The position numbers and the translations under genes were made by a program. The notes under the pieces are model-generated. The model worked only from the letters and a program-made list of their open reading frames with translations. It ran no database searches and was not told where the DNA came from. A DNA stretch of 64,000 nt from an uncultured Pseudomonadota bacterium (GTDB taxonomy: Bacteria > Oederibacteriota > Muellerivitia > Muellerivitales > Muellerivitaceae): positions 64,001-128,000 of the forward strand of contig CAWJKT010000008.1 of NCBI GenBank assembly GCA_963843375.1, given 5' to 3'. Position 1 is the stretch's first letter. Every line of letters begins with the position of its first letter. Positions 20,702 to 38,500 of the stretch are shown here, one piece after another.

Positions 20702-20848
20702 GAAAGAAGTGTAATAATAAGACAACCGTATGTCAACCCGTTAGACAACCACAGCAAACCTGTTGGGCTTTCCCCTATTCCGTCTATATAAGATTATATG
20801 AGTTTGTATAAGATTAATTTGGGAAGAAAAAATGGTGGGGCATCCTGG
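20591..20848. repeat. Diverged direct repeat copy 2
   Basis: Aligns with 19410-19670. Confidence 0.85.
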
Positions 20849-20878
20849 ATTCGAACCAGGGACCAAGGCATTATGAGT
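20833..20878 (-). pseudogene. 3' half of host tRNA-Ile2(CAT), intronless; island attachment junction
   Basis: Minus strand ACTCATAATGCCTTGGTCCCTGGTTCGAATCCAGGATGCCCCACCA. Confidence 0.92.
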
Positions 20879-20964
20879 ATTCTGGTAAGGGGCCTTTGGT
20901 TTGTCCGTGTCATTCATAAAACCCTTTTCGCAAAAGGGTTTCATCTACTTTAGTAACTTGCTCA

Positions 20965-22056
20965 TCACTTGCTTTTTGCGGCTCGTGTCATATTCGTGTC
21001 ATTCAAGGCCTTCGCCTTCTCAAGGGCCGCTAGGCGGTCCTCCCGATCCACACGGTCATACTTACGAAATACCGCATGGGTCTTGTGACCCGAAATCGAC
21101 ATGATGACCGAATCGCTTACTCCCGCCTTCCTCAGGTTCGTCACCGCGCAATGTCTGAGGTCATGGAAACGAAAATCCAGAATCCCGGCATGTCGGCAAG
21201 CCTTCTTGAAGGCGGTCTTAATGCTCCCCATGGTCTGGCCTTTCCAGGTAAAAACATAGGGACTTCCAAGGGTCCGGGGAATCTGCTTCAAGAGATCTAA
21301 AAGCTCCCCTGTCAGCGGTACTTCCCTTTTCTCTTGGGTCTTCGTGTCCTCGGCTTCCAGGTAAATGACCCTGTTCTTGAAATCCACCTGCTCCCAGCGC
21401 AACTTCAAGATTTCACCGCAACGCATCGCGGTCAAATAAGCCAACTGAACGATGGGCTTGAGGTGATTGGAGCATTTCTCCAAAAGCCTCCGGTATTCCT
21501 CCGGCTCCAAAGTGCGGCTTCGGAAGTTCGCTTTGAACTTCTTCACCCCCGCTATCGGATCCCGGTCAATCAGCCGGTTCAAAACCGCCCGGTGAACCAG
21601 GGCCTTCAGGATGGCGATATCCAGGTTCAAAGTCCCCTCGGCGACCGGCCTGCCGGGGTGGGACAACTGACCCTTACTCTTCCGGTGGACCAAAAAGGCT
21701 TCCACCAAATCCGGGCTCAAACTTTCCAAAGGACGGTCTCCAAAAAAGTCCTTAAACAAGTTGATCCGGTAGATATCCCTGGTGTGGCTTTTCTTCCTGG
21801 CTTTTGAGTAAGCCAAAAAAGCATCCGCCGCCTCGAAAAATCCCACCATTGGTTTATCGGAAGCTAAATACTTCTCTTCCGCCATATCCCCCATATTCTG
21901 GGCCAAAATCTTCTTGGCCTGGGCTAGGGTGATATTTCCCAACCGTACCCTTTTCCTCTTCCTCAATCCATTCTCCCGGACGAAATAGTCCAGGAAGTAA
22001 CCCGCCCCATCCTTGCGAAGATGCTGCGGCAATCCATGAACATTAGGTTTAGCCAT
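20965..22056 (-). CDS. Tyrosine recombinase/integrase
   Basis: TAMRCGEI, KTQEKR, RFHDLRH, ISGHKT, RKY catalytic pattern; AGGAGG RBS before ATG 22056. Confidence 0.95.
   Translation of the reverse strand: MAKPNVHGLPQHLRKDGAGYFLDYFVRENGLRKRKRVRLGNITLAQAKKILAQNMGDMAEEKYLASDKPMVGFFEAADAFLAYSKARKKSHTRDIYRINLFKDFFGDRPLESLSPDLVEAFLVHRKSKGQLSHPGRPVAEGTLNLDIAILKALVHRAVLNRLIDRDPIAGVKKFKANFRSRTLEPEEYRRLLEKCSNHLKPIVQLAYLTAMRCGEILKLRWEQVDFKNRVIYLEAEDTKTQEKREVPLTGELLDLLKQIPRTLGSPYVFTWKGQTMGSIKTAFKKACRHAGILDFRFHDLRHCAVTNLRKAGVSDSVIMSISGHKTHAVFRKYDRVDREDRLAALEKAKALNDTNMTRAAKSK
20983..21004. repeat. Putative integrase arm-type sites, left end
   Basis: TCGTGTCATATTCGTGTCATTC, 21/22 identical to 38266-38287; extra CGTGTCATTC at 20906-20915. 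Confidence 0.7.
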
Positions 22057-22607
22057 ACTTCCTCCTAATGTCCCCAGCGAAATCATGATAGCAGGGGGCA
22101 TCAAGTTTTCAAAATACCCAAACACTTAATAAATAAAACGGCAGAAAATGTCGTATTACCTTTCCACAGCACTAATAACGCTGGGAAAGAAAAACACCAA
22201 GTCCTTAGCGTGTTTTGGAATCTATCAAAAAATAGGTTTTTAAAACACGTAGAGTTTTCTAGGTGTTATTTAAAAAGCTTACTAAAGGCTAAATTTAATA
22301 AAAGGGCCTTATAAGGTCCCTTTTTCAAAAGACCGCCAAAAGAGATAATTCAAAAATACGGTAATCGGAGACCGTGTTTTTGTGAACCATCTGTAGATGT
22401 TCTCTACACAAGTTAAAAACGTTTTTTTTGCAGTATTTTGAACAAAGGAGAGAAGAAAAAGACGGGGGAAAGAACCCGTGTTTCGAAACTGACTTTTTAG
22501 GGAGAATAGGTAGTTAAAGCTGTTATATCGCGAATCGCAGTCAAACTTGCGAATACTTAATCAGCAATTTTTTATTACTTTGACCCGATAAGACAAGTTT
22601 CATTTTT

Positions 22608-23462
22608 TTAGGACTTCCGAAATTGGTTTAATGTTTTCATCAAATCTGAAATTTTCCAAAGAATTACATTAGCTTGTTCAAGCTCAACTTGCTTAAAATT
22701 ATGAGCGAATTCGTTTCGATAATATTTAAATATCATTCGCAATTCACTTCGCAATGTTTTCAAGTGAGAGCCTATATATTTATCTTCTTTTAAATTATTT
22801 TTTATAAATAATTCGATTAGTTTTTGCCCATAGCTGTTAATTTTTGAAATTTTTTTAATCTCATTTTCAAAAATAATAAAGCCTTCACGAATGGCTGTGT
22901 CATACCTTTTAATCTCGAGATAAGGTTTAACCCATTTCGATACTTTTGGGTTTATGTATTTTCCCGATTCCTTCAATAAATCCTTTAGAGCCAAAAATCC
23001 AGCCCTTGTCACTTTTAAACCATCTTTTCCAATATCAGCAAACTCATCTGTATCGTCAGGATCATAAATAGGTTTCGGAACTTTCCCATAACTTCCATTG
23101 CTCAACTTGAAATACAACTCCTCATGATTTCCCCATTTCTTCAATTCCCAATTGAAACTATTTATTTCTCTAACCCCTGAAACATATCGTCGTTTTTGAA
23201 GGTCAATTAAATCTTCATGCCAAACCGCAACGTGATAATTATTTTCGTCATAAGGGTTTTTGCCTGGTTTCCCAACGCAAAATAGCATGCACTTATCAAT
23301 ATCATCAATCGCGTTGAAAACGGTTCCACGAGGATATAAACCAAAGGTTAAAAGTCCTATAGCCCAACCATGTTCAATAGGATAAACCGGCCAATCCGCA
23401 TGGATGGCAATAACACCTTTTGAAGTCCAGCCTAAATAACCGGGATGCTTAGAAAGTTTCAA
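22608..23462 (-). CDS. Hypothetical protein with C-terminal TIGR02391/HEPN-like domain
   Basis: YDTAIREGFIIFENEIKKIS...G..LI...RNEFAH (RxxxxH); low GC. Confidence 0.6.
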   Translation of the reverse strand: MKLSKHPGYLGWTSKGVIAIHADWPVYPIEHGWAIGLLTFGLYPRGTVFNAIDDIDKCMLFCVGKPGKNPYDENNYHVAVWHEDLIDLQKRRYVSGVREINSFNWELKKWGNHEELYFKLSNGSYGKVPKPIYDPDDTDEFADIGKDGLKVTRAGFLALKDLLKESGKYINPKVSKWVKPYLEIKRYDTAIREGFIIFENEIKKISKINSYGQKLIELFIKNNLKEDKYIGSHLKTLRSELRMIFKYYRNEFAHNFKQVELEQANVILWKISDLMKTLNQFRKS

Positions 23463-23688
23463 ATGTCTCCGCTTTCTAAATCATTTTCTCGGCTTTCTAC
23501 TTCACCTTCAAACTTATACTGATTTACAAGTTCTTCCTCTACCCACCACCCAAGCATAATTTCTGGAACAGAACCAAAAGTAACAGCCTCTACTTCATAA
23601 ACTTGAACCTCCTTTTTGACCCTCTCTAACATCTCACTTAACCAATTTTCATCAACCTCAAGATCAATTGCTGTCCCTTTCCACATTT
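23459..23688 (-). pseudogene. 3' remnant of an unidentified gene cut by IS21
   Basis: Acidic open frame WKGTAIDLEV...ESGDI ending in overlap with the next start; begins at the IS boundary. Confidence 0.5.
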
Positions 23689-23788
23689 TGCTAACGCCGG
23701 TCGAAAAGTGTGACGGTGGGCGGTCCAAAAGTGTGACACCCCCCGCCTTCCATACGCCTTTAGGGTATATGGTCGTTGGTTGAACCTA

Positions 23789-24562
23789 TCAATCCTTCTT
23801 GTCTTTACGTCTCAGCCGTTTCTTCGCTTCCACCAGCCTGAAGCTTTGGCCGTTGGCCTCCAGAATATGCACCCGATGGGTCAAACGGTCAATAAGGGCC
23901 CCCGTCATCCTTTCGGAACCCATGATTTCCACCCAGTTTTCAAAGGGAAGATTCGTCGTTACCATCAGGCTGGTTCGCTCATAGGCCTTGCTGACCACCT
24001 CAAACAGCAACTCCGCTCCCGGCTTGGTGAACGGTACGTAACCCAATTCATCCAAAACGATTAGGTGGAGCCTGGCCAACTGCCGATGGAACTTGGCCAA
24101 TTGTTTTTCCTCGCGGCGCTCCAGAAGTTCGGTGACCAGGCCGGTCACGGAGAAGAACTTCACCGCCCGGCCCTGACAGCAGGCCTGGTAGGCCAGCGCC
24201 GTGGCCAAATGGGTTTTACCTGTTCCCGAATTGCCGATCAGCAGGACGTTTTCTTTTTTGTCGATGTACTCGCCCCGCATGAGTTCCCGCGTCAATTCCT
24301 GGTTGATCGAAGGCTGGGCCTTGAAGTCGAACGTGTCCAAAGTTTTGAGCACGGGAAAGTTGGCGTCGCGGATGCGCCTCTCCTTGGCCCGGCGTTCCCG
24401 GTCTAGAAGCTCCATCTCGGCCAATTTGAGCAGATATTGTGGATAGTCACTGCGTTCTGTGCGGCAGAGTTGGGCCATCTTGTCGTACTCCCGCTGCATG
24501 GTAGGCAGCTTGAGTTTTTTGAGGTGGTGTTCCAGCAAGAGCGTCTTTTTGGATTCGCTCAC
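23789..24562 (-). CDS. istB: IS21 helper ATPase
   Basis: GNSGTGKTHLA, LDELGY, TTNLPF..W, DRLTHR. Confidence 0.95.
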   Translation of the reverse strand: MSESKKTLLLEHHLKKLKLPTMQREYDKMAQLCRTERSDYPQYLLKLAEMELLDRERRAKERRIRDANFPVLKTLDTFDFKAQPSINQELTRELMRGEYIDKKENVLLIGNSGTGKTHLATALAYQACCQGRAVKFFSVTGLVTELLERREEKQLAKFHRQLARLHLIVLDELGYVPFTKPGAELLFEVVSKAYERTSLMVTTNLPFENWVEIMGSERMTGALIDRLTHRVHILEANGQSFRLVEAKKRLRRKDKKD

Positions 24563-26070
24563 GCTTCACCTCCCACAACCATCAGCTCCCGGTAGGCCGA
24601 AAGATCCGTCCGGGCCACTTGAACCCGTCGTAAGTGCTCACGACCGGCAAGGCTGAAGGTGGTCAGCCTGTAATCCTCCCTGGGGTAGAGCAACTGGGCG
24701 ACGGCGTCCCGGGTATAGATTTCCATTCCCACAGCTTTCTTCACCGCACGGGTGAGCCGCGAGAGGGAATATTTCTCCAAGAGGCGCAGAGTCTTGATGA
24801 ATTCCCGTGTCCCTTCACCATGGTGCCTTTCCATGGCTTCCATGCGGCGGCGCAGGAGGGGAAAACTTTCCGGCAGGTTCCAGTCTTCCAGGGGCCGGGC
24901 ATGATCGAGGGCTCCCGGTTTCCCTTCCAAAACCGCTAAATAATGCACCGGATTGAAGACCACACCTTCCTTTCCCCAAAGGCGATCGTGAGTCGCGATG
25001 AGCCTGTCCTTGTGGAAGATATCCACTCGCTTGATGTACCCCTTCACCACCACCGGATGGTGTGCCCATTCGGAAGGAACGGAATAGTCGTTGGTGTCGA
25101 AACGCACGAGGGACAAAGACGTGGCTGTCGTGGACTGTTTCAGACAGGCGTCAAAGGGAGTGGCCGGCAAAGGCCTGAAATGGGCCTTATCCTCGTCTAG
25201 AAGCTGCACCTTGGGTAGACCCTTCCCCCGCAATTTGCGCTTCAAGTCCTCCCGGCATTTCACCTCCAACTGCTCGTTCAGTTCATCCAGGTTTCCCACC
25301 TGTGGAACCGGGACCATGAAGTTCAGGCGGACGTATTTCACCCCGCCTTCCACGACGCCCTTTTCATTGCCACGGCGTATCGTGCAGAAGTGGTGATCGA
25401 AGAGGTAATGGCTCTCCAATTGCTGGAAACTTTTGGTCAAAATCCGTTGGTGTACCCCGGCGATCTTCGTCACGAGGGTCTTGGCATTGTCGTAGCTGAT
25501 CCGCCAGGGCACGCCGCCAAAATATTCGAAGGCCCGGATATGGCCTTCCCACACGAACTCCGTGCTTTCCCGCTCAAACATCTGGACGAAAAAAGCATCC
25601 GAATACGGAAGTGCCATCACAAAGAAAGGCCGTTTCACCAACACACCGTTGAGTTTGACCAGGGCGTGTCCAAAGTCCACCTGGGCCTCCCCGGGCCGAT
25701 GGATCAAAGGCACGAAGACCTCGCTATTCTTTTGCTTGAACCCCTGGACGGCTTTTTTCACCTGGCTATAGCCGCCGGTGTAACCATCCTCATCCCGCAG
25801 GCGCTCAAAAATGCGCTTGGCCGTATGTCGTTGTTTTTTGTGGACGTGCTTGTCGTCCTGAAGGATTTGCTTGATGCGGCCCAGGAAGGGCCCAATCTTG
25901 GGCTGTGACCTCTCCCGGTACATTCGGTAGCCCGGGGGTTGGCTATGGGCGAGTATTTTCTTGAGGGTTTCCCAGTGGATGCCTTCTTCTTCCATCACCT
26001 GGCGTTTGGAGACCCCCTCCACCAGGATTTTCTTGCGGATTTCGGTCCATCGGTCCATGTCCTTGTACAC
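24559..26070 (-). CDS. istA: IS21 transposase
   Basis: HTAKRIFERL, PGEAQVDFG, YDNAKT, EKGVVE, FDTNDYSVP. Confidence 0.95.
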   Translation of the reverse strand: MYKDMDRWTEIRKKILVEGVSKRQVMEEEGIHWETLKKILAHSQPPGYRMYRERSQPKIGPFLGRIKQILQDDKHVHKKQRHTAKRIFERLRDEDGYTGGYSQVKKAVQGFKQKNSEVFVPLIHRPGEAQVDFGHALVKLNGVLVKRPFFVMALPYSDAFFVQMFERESTEFVWEGHIRAFEYFGGVPWRISYDNAKTLVTKIAGVHQRILTKSFQQLESHYLFDHHFCTIRRGNEKGVVEGGVKYVRLNFMVPVPQVGNLDELNEQLEVKCREDLKRKLRGKGLPKVQLLDEDKAHFRPLPATPFDACLKQSTTATSLSLVRFDTNDYSVPSEWAHHPVVVKGYIKRVDIFHKDRLIATHDRLWGKEGVVFNPVHYLAVLEGKPGALDHARPLEDWNLPESFPLLRRRMEAMERHHGEGTREFIKTLRLLEKYSLSRLTRAVKKAVGMEIYTRDAVAQLLYPREDYRLTTFSLAGREHLRRVQVARTDLSAYRELMVVGGEA

Positions 26071-26202
26071 TCCTTTTCCTCCTGGAGGCGTGGTTTTCAT
26101 CTTTGAAAACCCACATCTTCCAGGGAATTTCGGGGAGTGTCACACTTTTCGACCGCCTTTTTGCCCTCTCTAGACCGTCACACTATTGGACCGGCGTTTA
26201 CA

Positions 26203-28284
26203 AATTTTTTTACTTTCAACATAGTCACCATGGGCTTCTGTTAAATGACCATAGATTTGGCTATACCGATTTCGAAATCCAAAAAGTGAATGCGTTTCAC
26301 CCTTAAATGGCATTCGAGCAAATTTATCAACAGTGGCCACAATAATTGACGGACGAGTCCTATATATTTCTTCGTCAACAACCACCACGGGCAATCCCGC
26401 CTGATTTGACTTGGCAGAGCTGAATTCACATTCCTTATTGTTGCACCATATAAGTGTACGTTGGGTCGCTTTATCAGGAACATATGTGTTCGGTTCCGGG
26501 ACACCCTTGTCACTAACAAGTATTGAACCGCACCGAGGACAAGAGACAAGTTGAATCGGGCTACCTGTGCTAGGCCTTCTTCCTTCCCTGGCCTTCTCAA
26601 TTACCGCTGCTGAATCCGAAAAAGTGTTAGGGGTTGTTTTTTTACCAACCCAAATTCCAATTCGAAATGGTTCTTGGCCAAAAATTTTTGGATTTTTATA
26701 CCTTATAACTTCACATGCCGCGATTAATGCCGCGGCCCGTTGAAACTGTTGAACCGTGAGGAGTCGAAGCGTATACCTCATAATTACGCTGACTCCGGCA
26801 CCTGCCTCCATGCCATAACGATTACCTCTTAAACGCCTTAAAGCTATTACAAAAGCAGACAATCCAAGATAAGCCTCGGTTTTACCGCCCCCTGTTGGAA
26901 ACCAAAGTAAATCGACTATCTCTCTGTCGCTACTGTTTTCATCAGCTACTCCGCAGAGATTCAGCAGTATGAAACCCAGTTGAAAGGGACGCCATGTTCG
27001 ATTTTTTGGGAAGTCATATTCATACGGCGTACCTTTTACCACTCCCGCCTTACGGTTGGTGGCGGCCCAAAGAGAGTGAATTCGCTGATCCCACATTGCT
27101 CTGTTAGAAAATTTAAATGCTTCAAAAACATGTTCGTCTGATTGAATAAGCAATAATCCATCTTTAATGCGCGAAGCGCAAACCCTACAAAGTTTAATAT
27201 TTATTTTCGAAACTTCATAAAACAACTTGTTTTCTTTTATTTCTGGCTTCTCACTTTCATTTTCAATTTTATCAATCCAAGATTCATACTCATCTACCAT
27301 CGGCTTTAATAATTTTATTAGTTCAGAAGCGGAACTCATCTCCGCCAAGAATTTCATATCTAACGTTGCTCCTCCAGTTTTGTCTGCCGGAGCAATAAGC
27401 ATTGGGGTCTCAAAAGAGGGAATAAATTCGGTAAATACTGCTGTTGTTCTTTTTCCACCATCAACCGGCTCTGCCCATCCAGCAGACACTCCATGACCTG
27501 TCGCGAACTCCCTAGAATCTCGATAAAGCAATTCGTTAGTTGAGCTTTCATCATCTTCGGAAACATAGGTTGGTTCTGGCCGATAATCCTTTGCAACAAA
27601 CACAGGACTGTTATTAGAAGTAGTTACATACACGGAGGGTTGATAAATCCAACGTTCATCTTTTGACCTGTCCCCTAATTGACCTTTTGTGCGTCGATTG
27701 ATCAAAAACAGGCTTACAGCTCTATGCCCCCCAAGATCATGAACAACACCCTCAATAGATATTTCCATATCATCAATTTGTGAAATAGATACACCGGGAG
27801 GATTCGAAGCGGAGGGGGATAAAGTTATTTTTGATATTGCCCCGGCTTTAGCAACTTGCACTCCATCAACCACGCCACTAATTGGGTATCTTTTCCAAAC
27901 GTACTTTCCTAATCCATCTTTTTCTCGTTTGTAATTGCCCCAGGCAACCCTAACTTGTAATGTTTTATTCTGAGAATCGATAAGAAAAGACAACCCGAAC
28001 GAAGAGGGGTTAAATCCAATTATAAGGGGTGGTTGCGGTTCCTCTTCTCCATCCTCCTCCGAGCTAACACCCATTGCGAGTTTTTCATTTTCAGTTTGTT
28101 CGATCAAACCGTCCTTATCATTCTCATCAATTCTGGCCGGCGCTAATCTTCCAACAACGTATCTGGAAGTTGGATATTCATTTATCACCTCATCGGGTGC
28201 GCCTGGCCCCATGAGCTCTTTCTTCAGCGCAAGGAGCAATCTATCTCTTACCTGACGTTCATTATTTGATGGTGCCATAGTCAC
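26203..28284 (-). pseudogene. drmA: DISARM helicase DrmA-like, C-terminally truncated by IS21
   Basis: WRPFQLGF, DLLWFPTGGGKTEAY, MRYTLRLLTVQQFQR, ATVDKFA; Walker B and helicase C-terminal motifs absent. Confidence 0.8.
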
Positions 28285-29531
28285 CTTATAGCCGAAACAA
28301 ATTGTGGCGTTCTTTTACGAGCACCTGGACCAAGACCAGTACCTGGATGATCTTTGTAAATTCCTCTAAATTTGAGATAACTTTTGGGGACTGGTTTCGT
28401 CACTACCGCTCGGGGACAATTATTTCTTTTCGAGGGTATTAGTGTTAGATTTTTTCGGACATTTTCCCCAAATAATTGACGTCTAATTTCTAAACCAAAT
28501 AATTCGCCAATGGCACTCGGCACAGCATTACCAATTTGACATTGTGCTGAACGACGATCACCCTGAATCTCATACCCCACCGGAAATGTTTGAAGGCGGC
28601 AAAGTTCTTCTATTGATAAGAGTCTATTTTTCCAATGAAAAGGTCCTGTTGCTGGCCCAGGCATCGCGGGTATTGTCCATGAGGGTTGGTTTTTGGCAAG
28701 TTTGAGGAGGAAAGACCAATAGCGTGTTCTCCAACCAAAAAGTGGTTCGCCACCATTTTGACGGTTTCGAGAAGTGTGCCAAAGATAATTTCGACCTTCC
28801 GGAATACTCTTAAGCAAATTTGCCCATCTTCCAGTCAAATTAAGAGCTGAAGGCCAAGTAGAAGTATCTAAATCACCTATTGCGTCCCATGCAGTACGAT
28901 ATGGCTCAAGACCATTAGAATCATCGTGCGTTGACTTTGGAGGGTCTATAGTCTTCCCAGTAATACTTGCGAGTATAAAAACTCTTTCCCGAAACTGCGG
29001 CACGCCATAACTGGCAGCATTTAAATGAATAACTTGCAACCGATAATTACAACCTACACGTTTATTAATAGCCTTGATTCCACGAATTAAAAATTGAAGC
29101 CCTTCATCTTTGCCGTTAAAAGCCAATCCCTTAACATTCTCAAGTAGAAGAACTTTTGGCAAAATTAATTCCACGGTTTGAAGAAATGCTTTGAGCGTCT
29201 TTGAGCGAGGATCGCTTAGACGCGGCGAGTCTCCACTAGACCAAAAAGCCGCTTTAGAAAAGGGTTGGCATGGCGGGCCACCAGTAAGAAGAGATACTTT
29301 TTTCGGCCTCATCCTGGACTGTTTTAAAATATCATTTGGTTTCAACTCGTAAATATTTCCGGGCTCCGCAAGTATCCATCCTGGCCTGTTATGCATTAAA
29401 GTTTTTCTTGCATCTCCATCAATTTCTACACAAAGTCTATTCTTAAATCCTGCGGCTTCAAATCCGAGATCTAACCCTCCTGCCCCAGTAAATAAAGAAA
29501 TAACAGTTCGTTCAGTTGAATGAACATTCAT
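28281..29531 (-). CDS. DNA cytosine-5 methyltransferase (DrmMII-like by context)
   Basis: LFTGAGGLDLGF, GGPPCQPFS, ENV, PQFRERV, RLQTFP, QIGNAVP. Confidence 0.92.
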   Translation of the reverse strand: MNVHSTERTVISLFTGAGGLDLGFEAAGFKNRLCVEIDGDARKTLMHNRPGWILAEPGNIYELKPNDILKQSRMRPKKVSLLTGGPPCQPFSKAAFWSSGDSPRLSDPRSKTLKAFLQTVELILPKVLLLENVKGLAFNGKDEGLQFLIRGIKAINKRVGCNYRLQVIHLNAASYGVPQFRERVFILASITGKTIDPPKSTHDDSNGLEPYRTAWDAIGDLDTSTWPSALNLTGRWANLLKSIPEGRNYLWHTSRNRQNGGEPLFGWRTRYWSFLLKLAKNQPSWTIPAMPGPATGPFHWKNRLLSIEELCRLQTFPVGYEIQGDRRSAQCQIGNAVPSAIGELFGLEIRRQLFGENVRKNLTLIPSKRNNCPRAVVTKPVPKSYLKFRGIYKDHPGTGLGPGARKRTPQFVSAIR

Positions 29532-29622
29532 ATAATTATTGGTTCCTTCATTTTGGATACTTTGATTTTTGGAGTTAATTTGTCTAGCAAATTTTACTTT
29601 GATTTATCCTCTAATCCCATCT

Positions 29623-30099: not shown

Positions 30100-30117
30100 G
30101 GTTTCCCCCTTTCCGGG

Positions 30118-30603
30118 CTAGATCAGCCCGGCTTGCCGGAATGAAAAGTGCCCCTCATGGGTGACGATCAAATGGTCATGGACGGCAATCCCCAAGGCGC
30201 GGGCGGCGGTCACGATCTGCCGGGTTAATTGCTTATCGCCCTCACTTGGTTCCAAGCTCCCGGCTGGGTGGTTATGCGAAAATAAAATCCCGGTGGCGTC
30301 CAGTTCCAGGGCCTTCTTGAGAACCTCGCGGGGGTACACGGCGGTATGGTCAACGGTGCCTTCCTGGTTCAAAACCACGTCCAAAACATGGTTCCGGTGG
30401 TCCAGGTACATGGTCAAGAAAGCCTCATTGCGCTTCCCGCCGATATACTTACTGAAATATTCAACCGCGTTCTCCGGGCTTCCGATAACTGACCCCCGCT
30501 GGTAGGTTTCCCTGGCTTCCGCCCAACTCACCGGCGGAACCGTCGGCGGCGGCAAAGCCCCAACCTCAAATTTAAATTCAACTTGTTCCTTGGAATCCTT
30601 CAT
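30118..30603 (-). CDS. radC: RadC-like JAB domain protein (short mobile-element type)
   Basis: GTVDHTAVYPREV, SHNHPAG, PSEGD, DHLIV. Confidence 0.9.
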   Translation of the reverse strand: MKDSKEQVEFKFEVGALPPPTVPPVSWAEARETYQRGSVIGSPENAVEYFSKYIGGKRNEAFLTMYLDHRNHVLDVVLNQEGTVDHTAVYPREVLKKALELDATGILFSHNHPAGSLEPSEGDKQLTRQIVTAARALGIAVHDHLIVTHEGHFSFRQAGLI

Positions 30604-31095
30604 GTTCCCCGTCCTTTCCGAGGGAGAACGCCCTCCGGGGGCGGCCCTCAAAATTTGAGGGGCCGACCACGGGGGGTAAGGGTGGACGAAACATCGGGCG
30701 ATAGCCCAAAGTGGAGTCCACGAGTTGTTATGGCCGTGGGGAAAGTTTCTGCTCATGGCCGGTTTTGGCGATTCATGAGCAAAACCGAGGGCGAAGGGCG
30801 GGCCTTACTTGGCCCGAACGAGGTAGCGGCCTTTAGGCCGCCCCGAGGCTCGCTTTTCCCACAGCCATAACTTCATTGAATGTTTAAATGATTTTCAGGA
30901 AAGGGGTGGGCTGAAATTTATGTTGAGCTTCACATAAATCTTGTTATGTGAAGTGGTTAGTTATGTGAAGTCCGGCCAAATAAACTCCTGTTTTTCGTTG
31001 TATGTCTGGCCATCCGTCGTTTTTCACTTCACATAATTCGGGTTGGTAGACTGCTCTTCCTCTTGGAACTCAAAGAGGAGAAAAGGAGCACTACC

Positions 31096-32358
31096 ATGCT
31101 TGAAACCTATTACAAAGATAAAAGGACTTTAGCAAATTTCCGCCGGGGACCCTTGGGACCTCATTTTGATGGATTCGCGGATCACTTCACAAAGAAGGGA
31201 TATGCTCCAAGTTCGGTCCCAGCCATGCTCAAACGCTGTTACCACTTCAATGCTTTTCTAATGGATCAAGGAATTTCCGATGTTCGATCCATCAACAGGT
31301 CGTTGGCAGAACTATTTCTGGTTGTTTATTTACTGAGAATCAAAGGCGTCGGTGTTTACAAGAAAAAAGTCGAGACAACTACGAAATATTTTTTGAACCA
31401 TTTCTTTATCTACCTTATTGAAACAGGTGTACTTCATCCTGAAGTCTCCAAGCAAGTTGTCACACCGTATAGCCAACTTATGGAACCCTATTTGAAGTAC
31501 CTTCGTGAAGAACATCGAGTCACCGAAGCTTGGATTCAAAGAATCCGAAAAAGACTCGTGCCGTTTCTTGAAGGATTGGGGGATCAGGCCAGGCCTGAAG
31601 CGATAAAGTCTTTGCGAGCCGAGGATATTGAGAAATATATCAAGAAACTTACCGCTGATCGTCGGCGAGACTTACGGTGTTTTGTCGGTGTACTGCGTGG
31701 ATTTTTGAGATTTTGCGTCCGGCAAGGATACATGGTTATGGACTTATCCGGCATGGCCCCCTCCGTCCCCTCATACCGTTTATCCAGTCTTCCCAGAGGG
31801 ATGGATGATTCCATGCTCAAACGTGTCCTCCATTCGGTTCCTTTGGAAACTCCAAGCGGGTTGCGGGACTATGCCATCCTGTTGATCATGATGACCTATG
31901 GTATTCGTGGAAAACAGGCCGCTGAATTACTACTGGGGGATATTCATTGGGAGCGGTCTACCATCCGAATACGCGCCCTGAAAGGCGGCAAAGATGTAGA
32001 ACTTCCTCTTTTGGAGTCGGTGGGTGAAGCTATTTTAAGTTATCTACGCCACCGCCGAAAAAGTCCGCTTCGGGAAGTTTTTCTTTTGAATCGGGCTCCG
32101 TTCCGACCTCTTACATGGCGAACTGTTGAACACATGGTTCAAAGGTATCTGATCAAGGCCGGTGTCAAAATACCCAGAAGTGGTGCAAGCACTTTCCGCC
32201 ATTCCTGGGCCATTCGAGCGTTGGCCCATGGCAATTCGATGAAAGCCATCGCGGATGTGCTAGGCCACAGACGCCTGGATAACACCTTTATCTATGCCAA
32301 GGCCGATCTCAAAACCCTTCGACAGGTCGCTATGCCGTGGGTGGAGGTGGCCTCATGA
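31096..32358 (+). CDS. ritA: RIT tyrosine recombinase A
   Basis: RDYAIL, YGIRG, KGGK, TFRHS, VLGH, IYAK. Confidence 0.88.
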   Translation: MLETYYKDKRTLANFRRGPLGPHFDGFADHFTKKGYAPSSVPAMLKRCYHFNAFLMDQGISDVRSINRSLAELFLVVYLLRIKGVGVYKKKVETTTKYFLNHFFIYLIETGVLHPEVSKQVVTPYSQLMEPYLKYLREEHRVTEAWIQRIRKRLVPFLEGLGDQARPEAIKSLRAEDIEKYIKKLTADRRRDLRCFVGVLRGFLRFCVRQGYMVMDLSGMAPSVPSYRLSSLPRGMDDSMLKRVLHSVPLETPSGLRDYAILLIMMTYGIRGKQAAELLLGDIHWERSTIRIRALKGGKDVELPLLESVGEAILSYLRHRRKSPLREVFLLNRAPFRPLTWRTVEHMVQRYLIKAGVKIPRSGASTFRHSWAIRALAHGNSMKAIADVLGHRRLDNTFIYAKADLKTLRQVAMPWVEVAS

Positions 32359-33359
32359 CAACCCACCTTTTTCAAAGTCCAGTGGCCTCCAAAATGTATT
32401 CCTTTTTGGAAATACGCCGTGCTTTGGGACGCCAAGCGGACACGGACCAAAAAACACTTCGGTACATTGACCGTTTCCTGGCGAATGTCCTCCAACCAGG
32501 GCAACCCATCACGCGGGAGATCATCCATCAATGGCTAAAAACTATTGAGCCGTTGAGTGTGGTTACCCGAATTAACCGGATCAGCACCTTCCGAAAGTTC
32601 TGCCGTTATTTGAATCATTTTGATCAGCGGACACATTTGATTCCACGCGGTCTCACTCCTAAGCGGACCCGTCCGGTTCCTTACATCTTTACCGATGAAC
32701 AAATACGAGCCGTACTGGCTGCCGCCAAACGACTCCGCACAAGAAGTTCATTTCTTCCTTTCCTGATTTCGACCTTGATTGGCTTGCTTTACAGTACAGG
32801 GCTACGGATCAGTGAGGCGTTGAAATTGACTTTGGGGGATATTGATCTCAAGCGAAGGCTTCTTCTGATTCGTCAGACCAAGTTCCAGAAGTCTCGTTGG
32901 GTTCCCATATCCGTATCCACTGCCAAATCCTTGCGTGATTTTCTTGAGCGGCGGCGAAAAAGTGGATTCTCAACGGTTGAGACGGCACCGGTTTTCATCA
33001 ATCCTTACAAGAACGCAAATGGAAGACCATATAAGTACGATAGATTTTGTGGCGTTTTCCTAAAAATCCTTCGGGAAGAGAAGATTCGTGGGCCCAAGGG
33101 AGACCGGGGACCAAGGGTTCACCACCTACGACATAGTTTTGCCGTTCACCGATTGGCCAAGTGGTATCGGGAAGGGGCGGTTATTTCAACCAAGTTGCCA
33201 CTGCTTTCAACTTACTTGGGTCATTCCAGCCTTGTCGGCACGGAGGTTTACTTACAGGCCACCACCGACCTGTTGGAGGAAGCCAACAGGCGCTTCCACG
33301 ACAACTGCGCCTTTCCAAATTCACAGCAAAAGCCTAAAGGAGGCGTCCATGCCCAATAA
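32355..33359 (+). CDS. ritB: RIT tyrosine recombinase B
   Basis: TGLRISEAL, TKFQKSRWVP, HHLRHSFA, LSTYLGH. Confidence 0.88.
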   Translation: MTTHLFQSPVASKMYSFLEIRRALGRQADTDQKTLRYIDRFLANVLQPGQPITREIIHQWLKTIEPLSVVTRINRISTFRKFCRYLNHFDQRTHLIPRGLTPKRTRPVPYIFTDEQIRAVLAAAKRLRTRSSFLPFLISTLIGLLYSTGLRISEALKLTLGDIDLKRRLLLIRQTKFQKSRWVPISVSTAKSLRDFLERRRKSGFSTVETAPVFINPYKNANGRPYKYDRFCGVFLKILREEKIRGPKGDRGPRVHHLRHSFAVHRLAKWYREGAVISTKLPLLSTYLGHSSLVGTEVYLQATTDLLEEANRRFHDNCAFPNSQQKPKGGVHAQ

Positions 33360-34359
33360 CCTAGCTTCTCCAGTCCGAAACTTCTTTGAGCATTACCTGA
33401 CCGGCGAAAAAGGTTTGAGTTCTCATACGATCCTGGCTTACCGCGACACCTTGAAACTACTTCTGAGGTTTGCGGCGGATCACCATCGAAAGTCATGCGT
33501 GGATCTGACGGTGGAGGATATTTCCGCCGAAACTGTCCGGCTATTCTTGGTGCACCTGGAAAAAATAAGGGGTAATGGAGTCCGAACCCGCAATACCCGG
33601 CTAGCGGCCATCCATTCTTTTTTCCGCTACTTGGCTTATTGGGAACCCCGGTTTCTCGTAGCTTCCCAGGAGGTATTAGGGATTCCTTTCAAACGACACG
33701 CCAGTCCCGTGATGGGATATTTGAACCAGGAGGAGATGGTCCATTTATTTAGTCATATTGATACTGGAACATCTCAAGGCAAACGCGACGAAGCCGTTCT
33801 GCGGTTGATTTACAATACAGGTGCACGGGCCCAGGAACTGGTGAGTTTGGACGTAAACCATATACGATTCAGCCGTCCTTATTTGGTTCACATCCTTGGA
33901 AAAGGAAGAAAAGAGCGGACATGTCCTCTCTGGTCCGAAACTGTGGATTCACTAAAAAATCACCTGGAAGAGCGCCATGTAAAGACTTCAGACCGCGCTC
34001 CTCTTTTCGTGAATGCCAAGGGACAGAGGCTTTCCCGTTTCGGTTTACGGCACCTTATTACCCGGCGGGTTGCCATCGCGGCCAAGACCTCGCCAACCCT
34101 TCTCACTCGGAAGATTGGGCCTCATACCTTCCGACACACAACAGCCATGCATTTGCTTCAATCCGGTGTCGATCTCAACATGATTCGATCATGGCTTGGG
34201 CATTCATCGATTGAAACCACCCATGGTTACGTTGAACTCGATTTGGAGATGAAACAGAAGACGCTTCAGTCATGCAAGAATCTCCTCCCAAAAATGGAGA
34301 AGGGCGGCCCTTCATGGCAACAAGACCAGGGCATCCTGGACTGGTTGGCACGCCTCTAA
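33349..34359 (+). CDS. ritC: RIT tyrosine recombinase C
   Basis: TRNTRLAAIHSFF, TGARAQE, GKGRKER, HTFRHT, WLGH. Confidence 0.88.
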   Translation: MPNNLASPVRNFFEHYLTGEKGLSSHTILAYRDTLKLLLRFAADHHRKSCVDLTVEDISAETVRLFLVHLEKIRGNGVRTRNTRLAAIHSFFRYLAYWEPRFLVASQEVLGIPFKRHASPVMGYLNQEEMVHLFSHIDTGTSQGKRDEAVLRLIYNTGARAQELVSLDVNHIRFSRPYLVHILGKGRKERTCPLWSETVDSLKNHLEERHVKTSDRAPLFVNAKGQRLSRFGLRHLITRRVAIAAKTSPTLLTRKIGPHTFRHTTAMHLLQSGVDLNMIRSWLGHSSIETTHGYVELDLEMKQKTLQSCKNLLPKMEKGGPSWQQDQGILDWLARL

Positions 34360-34782
34360 TTATGTGAAGTGCGGGAGGGTCTTCACCACAGGATTTTCCC
34401 GCATTTTATCATTCCAATCCGATCAACTTCACATAACTAACCACTTCACATAACAAGATCACCCGAACGGTCTTTGTGAGGGAAGCTTGGCCCAGGGGGA
34501 AAGCCTAGAAAAAGGGATTCTGTACCATCCCTTTTTCGTTCCCCCCATAAACGGCACTTTAAATCCAAAATCCACGCTACCAGGAAGGACTAACCACCAA
34601 GTCTTAACCAGCTTTACCAACCACCTGCCTTACCGCCCATACCAACCCACCTACCACCATTACCCACTACCACCCCCAACATTCCAACCTACCACTCCTT
34701 GACTCCTGCTCCTGTTTTTCCTTGCTGTGTCTCTAATCAGTTCATCTCATCTACACCTCAAGTCAATTTCTCAGATTCATAA

Positions 34783-34879
34783 GGTTTTCCAATGAGGAGA
34801 GGGCGAACCCCCCTATCGTTTCTAGCATCCTCACTTGATGCGTAGATAGGGGGGTTCGCCATCGGATCATTGGAAAACC
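34783..34879. other. Long interrupted hairpin (~97 nt) in non-coding DNA
   Basis: 13-bp outer stem GGTTTTCCAATGA/TCATTGGAAAACC, 16-bp stem GGCGAACCCCCCTATC/GATAGGGGGGTTCGCC, inner GCATC/GATGC. Confidence 0.7.
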
Positions 34880-35163
34880 GACCCATTCAAAGGGAAATTT
34901 TCATTTTTGGAGTTCCATGGCGCGGAACTTTCATTTCCATGGGACATCGACTTTCTCCGCTTCCCTATTAGCTTTTAGGACTTCACGAGTGTTTCTGGTG
35001 CCTCAAATTCCCTTTAAATTCAATCGGACATTTCTCAAGACACCATGGCAAGGCCCCGGAAGTGGGCATTGGTCTTCAGGGGTATAGGGCAACTTTACAA
35101 GAAGGGAAAAAAGCGGTACCTTTTCCGGCTTTGCCAAAATAAGGGAAGTCGAGGTAAAGGAAG

Positions 35164-35402
35164 ATGAGCCGTTCCAGAAGGCATACCCCAAAACGTGGGA
35201 TCACAACCGCCAATTCCGAGAAGTGGGACAAGCGATTAGCCAACCGCACCCTTCGCCACCACAACAAGATCCTGGTCAATAAGGCGGGGGGGAAGACGCC
35301 CTTCCCCTCAAAATGAACCAGGTCATGACCACTTGGCACATGAGCAAGGACGGGAAGATCCATTTCGACCCGAGGAAAGAACCCAAAAACATGAGAAAGT
35401 AA
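35164..35402 (+). CDS. Small basic hypothetical protein (~79 aa) with frameshift in G7 run; missed by ORF track
   Basis: MSRSRRHTPKRGITTANSEKWDKRLANR...WHMSKDGKIHFDPRKEPKNMRK when G7 near 35286-35292 is read as G8. Confidence 0.55.
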
Positions 35403-35480
35403 CGTTTAGCGATGGGACAATGAATAAGCGACGGGGGACTTATTAACGCTTAAATTATTTAACAAAAAGAGAAAAGAGAA

Positions 35481-36701
35481 ATGATTACTCGTTACAAAAC
35501 CGCAATTATTGATTTATGCATTAAAATTCAAACTATCAATAACTCGCCCTGGAATTCCGGGAAACTTTGTTTTCTTGTCCAACAAACGATTTTAAAAAAA
35601 ATTGTTCATGTCGAGCTAAAGATTCAAAAACTAAAAAGCCGAATTAAAGAAGTAAATACACAGTTCAAAATCAATCGAGGAACTCCAAACGAAATAGAAA
35701 AAGCCTCAAAATTAAATATCGAATTAGAAAAATTAGATCGAAAGATCAAAGATTACAAACATTTGCTAATCGTATTTAGAAGTCTCGGCGATTCTCTGGC
35801 CTTTATTTACATAGATAAATACGACATAAAACAATTTATTTTCAAAGAAAGTGCAGGTTACATATCAGGGAAAGAGGGACTGAAGCTCGAATATGACATA
35901 TTAAAACTAGCCTTTAAAGCAGGCGGAATCGCGCTCCTAAACGATCTTACAAATTGTCTAAGGCATGGTGACATAACCCTAGTTCGGCCAGACTTACCAC
36001 CTGTAATCATCGAGGCTAAAACAGGCACAAGAGAATTTTCTAAAGGGGCAAAACAGATTGAAAAGACTAATAAGATTCTTGATTTTCTAAACAGCGGTGA
36101 AACGACCAGAGAAAATCATTTCGTGAGAAGAATGGAAATCAAAACCAAAGAAATAGATAACAGAGTTTTGCTAAACGCTTTAGTCCAAGAAGCTTTGACA
36201 ACAGGGGATGCATTTGCAACGGCTGAAGCCGGCTTGCATTATTATCTGGCGACAATCCCGAAAATCGAAAACGTCAAAAAAATTATGGCCAGTTTTAACA
36301 GCCAACCGATATCTGCTTTTTTGGATTCTAATCAAATGCCTTATATTGGCTATTACCCTTTATCGCTAATACTAAAAAATCCAAATGCATATTTTAGTTT
36401 TTGCCGAGAAGAACTACATATCGTGGTTTTCTTTGAGCCAGCAGTTATAAAACAAAAATTCGAATCTTTAGGATTTCGGATCGAATTTCATAACAGCGGA
36501 GATTACGAGTTCAGCTTGTTTGCGAAAGACGGAATGAATAAAGAATTTGGTCCATTAAATATCAGCAAATTCTTTTTCGGTCGAATGATTATTGAGTTCT
36601 TAAGTTTGGATTGGTTTTTGAACGAATTAGTTAACGTCTATCGCGGAACGCCTTTAGCGGATTGGCTAGCTCAAAAACCAGATCCCGGGCTCCAATCATA
36701 A
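35481..36701 (+). CDS. Hypothetical protein: N-terminal coiled coil + PD-(D/E)XK-like motif
   Basis: Heptad-rich residues ~35-100; GDITL...IIEAKTG; low GC. Confidence 0.6.
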   Translation: MITRYKTAIIDLCIKIQTINNSPWNSGKLCFLVQQTILKKIVHVELKIQKLKSRIKEVNTQFKINRGTPNEIEKASKLNIELEKLDRKIKDYKHLLIVFRSLGDSLAFIYIDKYDIKQFIFKESAGYISGKEGLKLEYDILKLAFKAGGIALLNDLTNCLRHGDITLVRPDLPPVIIEAKTGTREFSKGAKQIEKTNKILDFLNSGETTRENHFVRRMEIKTKEIDNRVLLNALVQEALTTGDAFATAEAGLHYYLATIPKIENVKKIMASFNSQPISAFLDSNQMPYIGYYPLSLILKNPNAYFSFCREELHIVVFFEPAVIKQKFESLGFRIEFHNSGDYEFSLFAKDGMNKEFGPLNISKFFFGRMIIEFLSLDWFLNELVNVYRGTPLADWLAQKPDPGLQS

Positions 36702-36711
36702 TCTGAAATAA

Positions 36712-37080
36712 TTACAAAAGGTTTTTGAAATCCTTTTTCAAGAACGGTGAGACTTTCCCGCCTTGTATTACCTTATCTAATAATGCATCCGACATATCGG
36801 CATCCGGTGTGGCGACGCGCATTGAAATGGCTACCTCGATTTTTTGGACATCTGAAAGGATTGCTTCGCGGTAATTAACTACGGATTCTTTCCTAATGTA
36901 GGGATGTTCGCGAGGTAGCAGAACACAAGATTGGTCCCTACCCTCTTCATTTTCCGTAATATTCACCAACAAAACCTTACCTTCCTCATCGGGCTCAGTT
37001 ATTACAAAATACAAATGAGGAGGATTTAGTGGTGAACCAGGATTTCTTAGTTGGACTGTACTTTTGATTTGGATTGGCAT
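36712..37080 (-). CDS. Putative toxin (PemK/MazF-like) of Panacea TA pair
   Basis: PHLYFVI...VLLVNIT...CVL...HPYIRKESVVNY; 11 bp after antitoxin. Confidence 0.55.
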   Translation of the reverse strand: MPIQIKSTVQLRNPGSPLNPPHLYFVITEPDEEGKVLLVNITENEEGRDQSCVLLPREHPYIRKESVVNYREAILSDVQKIEVAISMRVATPDADMSDALLDKVIQGGKVSPFLKKDFKNLL

Positions 37081-37091
37081 TCAAGAGGCAC

Positions 37092-37637
37092 TTACGAGCC
37101 AAAAACTGCATGGGCAAAGTGGAAATCAGAAATCTCTTGCTCGATCTTCTTTATCTCTTTCGGTTCTTTTCCAATAAAACTTAATAGTTTTTCATTGGCA
37201 ATTGGTAACGAAGAGCCGCTTGGGTCTTCCCATTCCTTTATGTGGGTATGGCAATAGTCGATCATTTCTCCAAAAGTATACTTTTTGAATTTTTTATCAA
37301 TTTCATTTAGAAGTTTCATTTCCGCTTCGGAGAGTTCACCATCACCCGGATCTTGAACAAGAACGGTATTAAATCCATCTTTCTTAATTGAGCAAAGCCA
37401 ATACTTGTTTTCAACCTTGCCTCTTATCCAATCATAAACTTCACTCAATACTGGCCCATTAACCATGGACACATAGCTTCCACCGGTGATAGGCCGGTTC
37501 CACTTCTTTAGAGCTTCCCTGTCGGCAAGATACATAAGCTTAATCATTTTTGTGTAATTGATATGCTTGCCGTTACTCTTGATAAAGTAGGCAGCCACTT
37601 GTGTTGCTTTTAATGGGTTTAAGTGAAAAATAATCAT
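37092..37637 (-). CDS. Panacea (DUF4065/SocA-like) antitoxin
   Basis: KMIKLMYLADR, PITG..Y, NGPV.SEVYD, YCH....EW. Confidence 0.85.
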   Translation of the reverse strand: MIIFHLNPLKATQVAAYFIKSNGKHINYTKMIKLMYLADREALKKWNRPITGGSYVSMVNGPVLSEVYDWIRGKVENKYWLCSIKKDGFNTVLVQDPGDGELSEAEMKLLNEIDKKFKKYTFGEMIDYCHTHIKEWEDPSGSSLPIANEKLLSFIGKEPKEIKKIEQEISDFHFAHAVFGS

Positions 37638-37737
37638 GAGTTACTCCTGAAACTTAGTATATATCTCTAACGACAGATACGGAAATTTTCAATAGCATGA
37701 CCGAATTAAGGTTATTTTTGCTAAGAAAACCAAATAG

Positions 37738-38035
37738 TGGTGGGGCATCCTGGATTCGAACCAGGGACCAAGGCATTCAGGTTTGTGCCGCTTACGCGAC
37801 TCCCCGGACTATCTCTTCACCCAAATATAAGGGTGTGGGACGCTTAAACGCGGTGATTAAGGGGCCTTAACCCCTCCGCTAGTCTCTGCACCTTCCCCCG
37901 GTGTACCGAAGGCTTGGCTCAGGATTGCCCGTCACCGGGTTTCCCTGAATTCATCCCATTTCATTCCCTGGCTTTCACCAGGGATGCACAGCTTCCGCTA
38001 TGAGTGCCCTGCTCTAACCGCTGAGCTAATGCCCC
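37738..38035 (-). tRNA. tRNA-Ile2(CAT) with group I intron; exon 1 38035-38000, exon 2 37777-37738
   Basis: Spliced 76-nt GGGGCATTAGCTCAGCGGTTAGAGCAGGGCACTCAT|AATGCCTTGGTCCCTGGTTCGAATCCAGGATGCCCCACCA folds as a cloverleaf; G1-C72 pair excludes fMet; resembles E. coli ileX; elongator Met not formally excluded. Confidence 0.9.
37778..37999 (-). ncRNA. Self-splicing group I intron, 222 nt, no ORF (IC3-like)
   Basis: P1 CAU|AGC-GGAA-GCU-GUG with U.G at splice site; P GAAUUCAGGGAA, Q AAUCCUGAGC, R GUGCAGAGACUA, S AAGAGAUAGUCC; P3 UGGGAU/GUCCCA; terminal G. Confidence 0.93.
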
Positions 38036-38051
38036 AATTTTTAAGAGTGCC

Positions 38052-38081
38052 ATTCTAAGACAGAATGACCCTTTCCAACAA
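38052..38081 (-). promoter_or_regulatory. Candidate sigma70 promoter for island tRNA
   Basis: TTGTTG-N18-TAGAAT ending 16 nt before the tRNA 5' end. Confidence 0.45.
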
Positions 38082-38265
38082 ACTATCAGCCAATGACATC
38101 CATAAGACATCGCCTTCTGAAAGTATTACCCCATAAAGATTTCTGGTGTCTTTCAGGGCAGCATTACTGCCATGGCTTTAAATTCAATCGCACTTTCGAG
38201 CCTTTTTAAACCATCAAGCACGGCACCACAACTGCCCTGCTTTAAGTGGAGTGCCCTGCTCTGCT

Positions 38266-38340
38266 TCGTGTCTTATTCGTGTCATTCGTAGTGCGCTTTT
38301 ACCGCCACTGACCGCCACTTACCATGCTTTACCATGCTTT
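38266..38340. repeat. Putative att arm: arm-type repeat plus four tandem 10-mers
   Basis: TCGTGTCTTATTCGTGTCATTC (38266-38287); ACCGCCACTG ACCGCCACTT ACCATGCTTT ACCATGCTTT (38301-38340). Confidence 0.65.
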
Positions 38341-38341
38341 C

Positions 38342-38391
38342 AAAAAAAGGCCCTTGCCCGTGACCTTCTTAAAAGCGTTACGGGCAAAGGC
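38342..38391 (-). terminator. Terminator-like hairpin inside island end, downstream of orphan tRNA 5' half
   Basis: Minus strand GCCTTTGCCCGT...ACGGGCAAGGGC followed by T7. Confidence 0.55.
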
Positions 38392-38460
38392 GTTTAAAAC
38401 GTGCTGGGGACAGTTAAATTTTTACTCACGGACTTCGGGACCCCGCCGAACCCTCCAAAA

Positions 38461-38500
38461 CATTATGAGTGCCCTGCTCTAACCGCTGAGCTAATGCCCC
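38461..38500 (-). pseudogene. 5' half of host tRNA-Ile2(CAT), intronless; island attachment junction
   Basis: GGGGCATTAGCTCAGCGGTTAGAGCAGGGCACTCATAATG then non-tRNA sequence; sits right after rpoD. Confidence 0.92.

Follow-up and report, generated by a model that had tools for sequence, protein, structure and literature searches.

Gene organisation at the split tRNA-Ile2 locus

The 64-kb stretch of DNA analysed here (hereafter the window, from contig CAWJKT010000008.1 of the genome designated G000) contains a 17,592-bp island that interrupts a tRNA(CAU) gene, situated after rpoD, within its anticodon loop. The gene was assigned to tRNA-Ile2 on evidence given below. An earlier reading of the same DNA, the original prediction, had proposed that the island splits this host gene, that its phage-side attachment site (attP) does not repair it, and that the island supplies a full copy interrupted by a group I intron without an open reading frame (ORF). 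Positions are those of the window, and all tRNA parts are read on the minus strand. The locus is made up of the following features.

38580 to 40379, minus strand: host flank with rpoD, which precedes the tRNA-Ile2 locus in relatives as well
38500 to 38461, minus strand: orphan 5' half of the host tRNA-Ile2 gene (attL), 40 nt, ending CTCATAATG; core copy at 38461-38470
38036 to 38460, minus strand: putative P' arm plus the spacer that separates the core from the island tRNA; includes a conserved element at about 38425-38265 that sister islands share, a hairpin bearing a run of T, direct repeats as well as ATGACAC/AAGACAC at 38279/38268
38035 to 37738, minus strand: complete tRNA-Ile2(CAU) gene; 5' exon 38035-38000, intron 37999-37778, 3' exon 37777-37738, CCA encoded
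37778 to 37999, minus strand: ORF-less group I intron, 222 nt, between U36 and A37 of the anticodon loop
22608 to 37637, no strand assigned: cargo region, with the genes listed further below
20965 to 22125, minus strand: tyrosine integrase of 386 amino acids (aa), with Pfam PF00589 Phage_integrase (1.3e-29) and a SAM-like N-terminal domain
20879 to 21003, minus strand: putative P arm of the att site, comprising a hairpin that follows the integrase stop and ATGACAC in three copies (20907, 20985, 20996)
20878 to 20833, minus strand: orphan 3' half of the host tRNA-Ile2 gene (attR); 3' exon 20833-20872 plus ACTCAT of the anticodon loop; core copy at 20869-20878

The orphan 5' half is immediately preceded by the rpoD terminator (38553-38525), and its last letters are the anticodon loop and the next two bases. 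The orphan 3' half is preceded by non-tRNA island sequence and is separated from the integrase stop by 87 bp. A 10-nt core, ACTCATAATG (CATTATGAGT on the plus strand), is common to both halves; its two copies form a short direct repeat within the tRNA gene, 17,592 bp apart, and mark the island boundaries, so that the island spans 20879-38460 under the explanation favoured here. In a comparison with metagenome contigs, the joint of one contig skips 17592 letters with 10 ambiguous letters, an independent match to this spacing. In the four islands for which both junctions were seen, attL and attR were identical over 8-10 nt, CTCATAAT(G). ARAGORN run without introns called no tRNA in the window, and hence neither junction is a tRNA; at neither of them was an attP-derived tRNA fragment found that regenerates a functional gene. 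The split, with its shared core and spacing, and the absence of repair by attP thus hold as originally predicted. A phage-type tyrosine recombinase lies at one island end, where an ORF at 20965-22056 had been proposed: its stop stands, but its start is more likely 22125, because relatives align from residue 4-5.

Four of the six minus-strand occurrences of ATGACAC in the 64 kb are located at the two island ends (20907, 20985, 20996 and 38279), all in one orientation, and these repeats are candidate arm-type integrase sites. The hairpin and ATGACACGG are conserved beside 12 related integrases. The conserved P' element, within the first ~200 nt inside the 5' orphan, recurs at other loci of G000 and its relatives, always 36-45 nt from a tRNA anticodon-loop junction or a tRNA 3' end (Ile2, Ser, Gln and Thr islands). 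The repeats and conserved end elements are read as the probable P' and P arms of attP.

Two other interpretations of this end were rejected. The ~37 nt between the core and the P' element might have been a decayed tRNA 3' half, but a comparable stretch that is not tRNA, with an identical conserved motif at its end, occurs in the Ser(CGA) island. Tandem islands as the origin of the 5' orphan were rejected as well, no second P' element being present after the intron-containing tRNA gene.

At the opposite boundary, a Fic-family protein is encoded just outside the island, adjoining the 3' orphan (19694-20725; PADLOC SoFic match, 4e-56). The gene is missing from the equivalent place in the relatives G001 and G009, and it may for that reason be a relic of an earlier insertion.

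The island carries a complete tRNA-Ile2 gene with a group I intron

When introns were allowed, ARAGORN identified tRNA(cat) i(37,222) at 38035-37738. This full copy lies inside the P' end of the island, 425 bp from the core, where about 430 bp had been stated, and its exons are 100% identical to the orphan halves. The intron interrupts the loop between CTCAT and AA and scored 73 bits against Rfam RF00028 (gathering score 50), as the sole match to that family in the 4.05-Mb assembly. The predicted full copy with identical exons and a 222-nt group I intron was therefore confirmed.

An alignment of 12 intron copies (mean column identity 88%) was used for structural analysis. In the consensus fold, P1 is formed by the exon CAU and the first intron bases and is closed by a tetraloop; a U.G pair occupies the 5' splice site (columns 36-47) in 12/12 sequences, and the last intron base is G, before AAUGCC. 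Compensatory changes were found at 32 of the 90 consensus pairs across the 12 sequences, indicating covariation. In every one of the 12 copies the intron lies inside the 8-10 nt crossover core. The intron is predicted to self-splice, which would give a tRNA equal to that of the host, and the island copy would probably be the working tRNA-Ile2 of the cell.

ARAGORN with introns allowed also reported six more tRNAs of G000 with 'introns' of 189-2909 nt (C3:63385-64905, C4:486197-488619, C4:490170-493158, C10:49078-50510, C9:139596-139986 and C11:193141-193416). Since RF00028 has no further match in G000, these are either false calls or additional tRNA genes split by small insertions.

Identity and copy number of the split tRNA

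Three CAU tRNAs were identified in the G000 assembly. One has a C1-A72 mismatch and a GGG/CCC stem and another has G2-C71/C3-G70; by the usual distinguishing rules these look like the initiator and the elongator tRNA-Met, respectively. The split gene is the only tRNA-Ile2 candidate, and its intact form in a relative has 84% identity to Escherichia coli genes annotated as tRNA-Ile with a CAT anticodon, its best match in that organism. G000 encodes TilS (TIGR02432, 192.6 bits versus a cut-off of 93.6; G000:C1:252335-252922), and AUA codons are in use, for example three in rpoD. On the strength of the CAU trio, the E. coli match, TilS and AUA use, the identity as tRNA-Ile2 was accepted, as had been proposed.

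The G000 assembly is a draft of 4.05 Mb, 80% complete and 4% contaminated, and because of this completeness the finding of a single tRNA-Ile2 copy in G000 is provisional. The 99%-complete genomes G001 and G003 contained no other copy of these exons, in a search that did not extend to divergent copies.

Four sister islands rebuild their target tRNAs

Five paralogous integrases with 57-66% identity are encoded in G000. In 4/5 cases the integrase has an intact tRNA as its neighbour, and the far end of the island, 6.5-19 kb away, holds an orphan half that terminates or begins at the anticodon loop:

G000:C8:171778-180575: Arg(UCG) island; orphan positions 1-43, 8.7 kb away
C11:49798-56450: Ser(CGA) island; orphan positions 1-41, 6.5 kb away
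C11:206549-225553: Ser(UGA) island; orphan positions 1-40, 19 kb away
Asp(GUC) island: orphan positions 34-78, 7 kb away

These four sister islands indicate that integrases of this family act by crossover in anticodon loops and that the target gene is normally restored from a half present in attP. Since they rebuild their tRNAs, whereas the integrase of the Ile2 island adjoins the host 3' half only, the Ile2 island is the exception.

In the Arg-UCG, Ser-CGA and Ser-UGA islands the orphan 5' half lies at the far end and the rebuilt tRNA beside the integrase. It follows that these three islands supply the 5' half, presumably with the promoter, of the working tRNA, which is the reverse of the usual 3'-end replacement. 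Two 3' fragments of tRNA-Thr(UGU) were also detected (G000:C9:32353-32493 and C9:89490-89625), each followed by a near-identical island-end element. One of them lies directly after the fifth paralogous integrase, which has no rebuilt tRNA, and an intact tRNA-Thr(UGU) is present on another contig (C20:29560-29635). This arrangement could represent tandem islands or a second unrepaired split.

The arrangement recurs in related genomes and metagenomes

The class to which G000 belongs is uncultured and comprises 32 species, its phylum 99, and the family set comprised 31 genomes. Ten of these contained the intron-bearing tRNA, 15 an intact intronless tRNA, one (G006) a 5' half, and five had no tRNA match; in the sister family the intron-bearing tRNA was found in 1/1 genome. 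The 5' half followed by the same conserved island end was identified in G000, G001, G003, G004, G006, G008, G018, G020 and G046. In G000, G003, G004, G020 and G046 and in 7/7 metagenome contigs, the integrase (71-91% identity) has an unrepaired 3' half as its neighbour. Related integrases were followed by the unrepaired 3' half in 12/12 cases, those of 72-91% identity adjoining the same orphan 3' half, and ARAGORN called no tRNA at any of the 12 metagenome loci examined. The layout thus recurs in at least eight related genomes and seven metagenome contigs, which bears out the co-occurrence of split halves with an intron-bearing internal copy that a search for homologues of the integrase had been suggested to check.

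Both island ends are on one contig in G000 and G003. The G003 island is whole (~22.6 kb, on a 1.29-Mb contig), has its parts in the same order as in G000, and shares with it the cargo next to the tRNA, namely SocA and a 122-aa protein. Between the 5' orphan and the full copy lie 362-441 nt in five of the genomes and 1.7-7 kb in another four.

These data bear on whether the locus in G000 could be a composite or an artefact, either a relic of an older island next to a host intron-bearing tRNA gene with a 17-kb element that entered through the 40-bp 3' exon, or a misassembly. A 40-bp perfect direct repeat of the 3' exon does flank most of the island, and the genome is an incomplete and partly contaminated draft. 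However, the core is complete in the 3' orphan, ACTCAT included, as it is not in an intron-bearing target, and the P' element of the family follows the 5' orphan and not the 3' end of the intron-bearing tRNA. Moreover, P' and the intron-bearing tRNA occur together at 362-441 nt in five genomes of five genera, and independent assemblies show the layout again, in one case on the 1.29-Mb contig. We therefore regard a composite or artefactual origin as very improbable.

Relatives with an unoccupied target were identified. Besides the 15/31 genomes with an intact intronless tRNA, G009 provides an empty site with its flanks, in which rpoD is followed by the intact tRNA and by a xylose-isomerase-like gene that also lies beyond the island in G000. 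An empty site with rpoD and an intact intronless tRNA ahead of the Fic region had been anticipated; the first two elements were found, but the next gene is the xylose-isomerase-like one, the Fic gene being absent there. In G006, a 5' half is joined to the island end and an intact junction is present as well, at a contig end. A metagenome contig with the G006-type flank is occupied. The occurrence of this flank in both the occupied and the intact state suggests presence/absence variation within a species. A tblastx comparison of the 1.5 kb downstream of 29 tRNA ends gave informative pairs only for G001/G009, G000/G003 and G018/G045, and was otherwise mostly uninformative because host flanks differ between genera.

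Two further loci differ in structure. In G043 (L078, G043:C123) an intact intronless tRNA-Ile2 (3368-3443) is followed 2.85 kb on by a repeat of the 3' half (6294-6333), with no related integrase and a different island end at the locus; an unrelated element of the classical repairing kind has used the same tRNA. In G005 (L029, G005:C95) the tRNA 5' exon is represented by two extra tandem copies of its first 20 nt (11285-11304 and 11393-11412), ~108 nt apart and just upstream of the 5' orphan, and the island junction differs from the others.

Evidence for horizontal transfer of the island and its intron

Phylogenetic analysis of the intron joined G000 with G020 (99/94) and rejected a grouping of G000 with G001 (approximately unbiased test, p-AU 1.4e-4). 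The rpoD tree joined the congeners G000 and G001 (99) and rejected G000 with G020 (p-AU 4.6e-6). The groups in both tests were named with the pairwise identities already in view, and the formal test is weaker for it. The integrase (91% identity) and the spacer (88-94%) agree with the intron tree. The conflict of intron, integrase and spacer with the rpoD tree indicates that the island with its intron-bearing tRNA moves between genera, and the discordant intron and rpoD trees support the proposal that the ORF-less intron travels with the island.

Proposed mechanism and its alternatives

The explanation that we favour for the locus runs as follows. An island of an anticodon-loop tyrosine-integrase family would have entered the single tRNA-Ile2(CAU) gene at the core ACTCATAATG, leaving the halves 17.6 kb apart, and the lost function would be supplied, via intron splicing, by the complete tRNA-Ile2 gene situated 425 bp inside the P' end of the island. 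Lying inside the 8-10 nt core, the intron would make the island copy unfit as a substrate for the island's own integrase, and the island could thus carry a whole copy of its target beside attP without self-recombination. Without the intron, a whole copy at this distance from attP would act as a cis attB, and the intron would prevent this. The ORF-less intron would spread by riding the island, and recombination between the duplicated exons may later strip the island, fix the intron allele and close the site as a target.

We are highly confident of the structural part of this explanation, that is, of an unrepaired essential target, a whole replacement, a conserved intron in the att core and a horizontally mobile package. 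The explanation as a whole, comprising split, complementation, masking, intron spread and later stripping, we consider somewhat probable. Masking of the att site would be a logical role for the intron, and may equally well be or not be the function for which it was selected. More tentative, and rather doubtful at present, is an integrase-ribozyme partnership in which the destruction of an essential single-copy tRNA gene would be affordable to the island family only because the self-splicing intron hides the replacement from the integrase, the island would be the vehicle of the intron between genera, and exon recombination would close the site.

Several observations weigh against this explanation, in addition to the weakened formal test of the tree groups. 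A consensus promoter scan called no promoter upstream of the island tRNA; a conserved TTG..N17..TA(G/A)AAT-like stretch was recognised there by eye in several genomes, which the scan did not call. At 80% completeness, G000 may contain a further copy of tRNA-Ile2. No intronless internal copy was found in any member of the island family that could serve as a contrast. No circle (attP) junction was found in the contigs of four metagenome runs. One X4 contig shows the joined intronless tRNA with the island skipped exactly; as its shorter side has 30 letters only and the tRNA is identical in other genera, this joint could stem from a relative and was not counted as excision.

Island-free intron-bearing genes belong with these points. 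In G025, of the sister family, an intron-bearing tRNA-Ile2 with its own exon variant lies between rpoD and guaB with no orphan or island end, and G073, from another class, has an island-free intron-bearing tRNA-Ile2 at the same position, again with its own exon variant. These two genes indicate that the intron is older than these islands and can be native. The arrangement accordingly did not originate with the island, in which the intron may be present through descent rather than selection. The intron would on this account be a passenger: the island splits and complements the gene, but it captured a native intron allele where an intronless copy would serve equally. The insertion point shared by G025 and G073 favours such a capture, as do weaker intron-like matches in five further genomes of the phylum. 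It is less readily reconciled with the presence of the intron in the island-associated copy of G000 and of all nine family relatives that have the intron-bearing tRNA, no intronless internal copy having been seen, or with the fact that an intronless copy at 425 bp from attP would be a perfect cis attB for an integrase whose sisters all act on anticodon loops. We consider a passenger intron unlikely, though a serious alternative.

Other states within the family suggest loss of the island. In G014, a 63%-complete draft, the intron-bearing tRNA occupies the native flank and no 5' orphan is present; its intron has 96.4% identity to the one in G004, which carries an island. G001 and G018 lack both an integrase and a 3' orphan: there the 5' orphan is followed by the island end, then by 1.7-2.7 kb of small cargo and by the intron-bearing tRNA, which directly adjoins the host flank. 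States of this kind would result from recombination between the duplicated exons (36 nt or 40 nt), and other routes to them are possible. Among the outcomes that would speak against it, the original prediction had named the intron allele after rpoD in island-free relatives and excision through the 40-bp 3'-exon repeat. These two were observed in part, the former in G025 and G014, the latter in G001 and G018, which look like such deletions; the core finding in G000 stands nonetheless.

The same three genomes could be read as the outcome of host defence, in which the intron serves chiefly to remove the att site, the chromosomal fixation seen in G014, G001 and G018 is what was selected, and the island-borne state is a transient by-product. 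A hypothesis of this kind has been published for Archaea, as outlined in PMC4090602 (citing Randau and Soll, 2008). It leaves unexplained why the island has no repairing tRNA half while four sister islands do; the support from G014 comes from a 63%-complete draft, and immunity is compatible with the explanation favoured here rather than exclusive of it. As the chief role of the intron we consider it improbable.

Cargo of the island

The cargo region between the integrase and the island tRNA contains the following genes.

22608-23462: Ymh-like protein
23789-24562 and 24559-26100: istB and istA of an IS21 element (~23688-26202), inserted into the DISARM gene drmA
26170-28284: N-terminal drmA stump, 704 aa, matching positions 1-702 of the 1165-position model
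28281-29531: C5 DNA methylase, DrmMII-like, beside the drmA stump
30118-30756: RadC
31063-34359: three adjacent, partly overlapping tyrosine recombinases (431, 340 and 423 aa)
37092-37637: SocA/Panacea antitoxin-like protein
Within the cargo region: 406-aa and 122-aa proteins of unknown kind

The depth of the IS21 element was 5-8x that of its flanks in four metagenome runs, and several other insertion contexts were observed. The contig depth of the three-recombinase unit was ~1.7x that of the flanks, and this unit may on that account be a separate multi-copy element. Among viral contigs, none of three pattern-matching stretches was confirmed as a relative of the integrase.

Comparison with known systems and significance

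Williams is said to have set out, in 2002, a scheme of sublocations for integration into tRNA genes (anticodon loop, T loop and 3' end). The Ile2 island resembles classical tRNA islands and prophages in its terminal tyrosine integrase, its target in a tRNA anticodon loop and the short identical core at both junctions, and also in the candidate arm-type repeats on both arms, the defence-type cargo and the empty sites in relatives. It differs in that classical islands rebuild the gene via a tRNA fragment in attP, whereas the Ile2 island leaves the halves and adds a separate full gene. Islands that target tRNA genes and group I introns in tRNA genes, including one in tRNA-Ile, are each well known, according to the excerpted text of PMC3984707. 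The known tRNA-Ile(CAU) intron, as described in that excerpt, is likewise small and ORF-less, lies in the anticodon loop with a splice after CAU, and has the P1 U.G pair and a terminal G. The known introns described there reside in chromosomal tRNA genes, whereas here the intron is in an island, by an att site and a broken intronless host gene. The resemblance to the Azoarcus intron is one of description.

Two archaeal precedents are close in parts. Randau and Soll (2008) proposed that introns and splits of archaeal tRNA genes prevent the integration of viruses and plasmids, in the summary given by PMC4090602. As there, an intron in the anticodon region would remove attB from the DNA and leave the RNA product unchanged; as summarised, however, that proposal concerns Archaea, protein-spliced introns and host defence, whereas the present case concerns a bacterium, a ribozyme and protection of the element's own copy. 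At the tRNA-Thr locus of Caldiarchaeum subterraneum, intron gain and scattering of fragments via a mobile element have been proposed (Sugahara et al., 2012; PMC3293823). According to its abstract, that locus also combines a tRNA 5' fragment, a recombinase-encoding mobile stretch and a full intron-containing copy (PMC3293823), but it is archaeal, with a 1.8-kb element, non-ribozyme introns and a single population, and the abstract describes no 3' orphan or att anatomy. In a literature search from which subscription journals were mostly outside, no bacterial island with an intron-masked copy of its own target was found.

Islands in tRNA genes are thought to be tolerated because the entered gene is rebuilt. 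With the Ile2 island family, the only tRNA-Ile2 gene is left broken and the cell would depend on the copy in the island, which would be a form of host dependence on the element and a different way for a mobile element to handle an essential target. Two kinds of selfish element that are as a rule treated separately also come together here, as an ORF-less group I intron appears to be carried from genus to genus by an integrase island; the means by which ORF-less group I introns spread in bacteria are poorly understood. To our knowledge, the idea that an intron hides an integration site has been discussed for Archaea without a testable system. The locus described here offers matched substrates for one integrase, namely intronless and intron-bearing alleles with the same exons, and natural intermediates are at hand in the occupied site, the empty site, the remnant and the fixed intron. 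If the partnership of integrase and ribozyme is true, it would provide a natural bacterial test case for tRNA introns that hide att sites.

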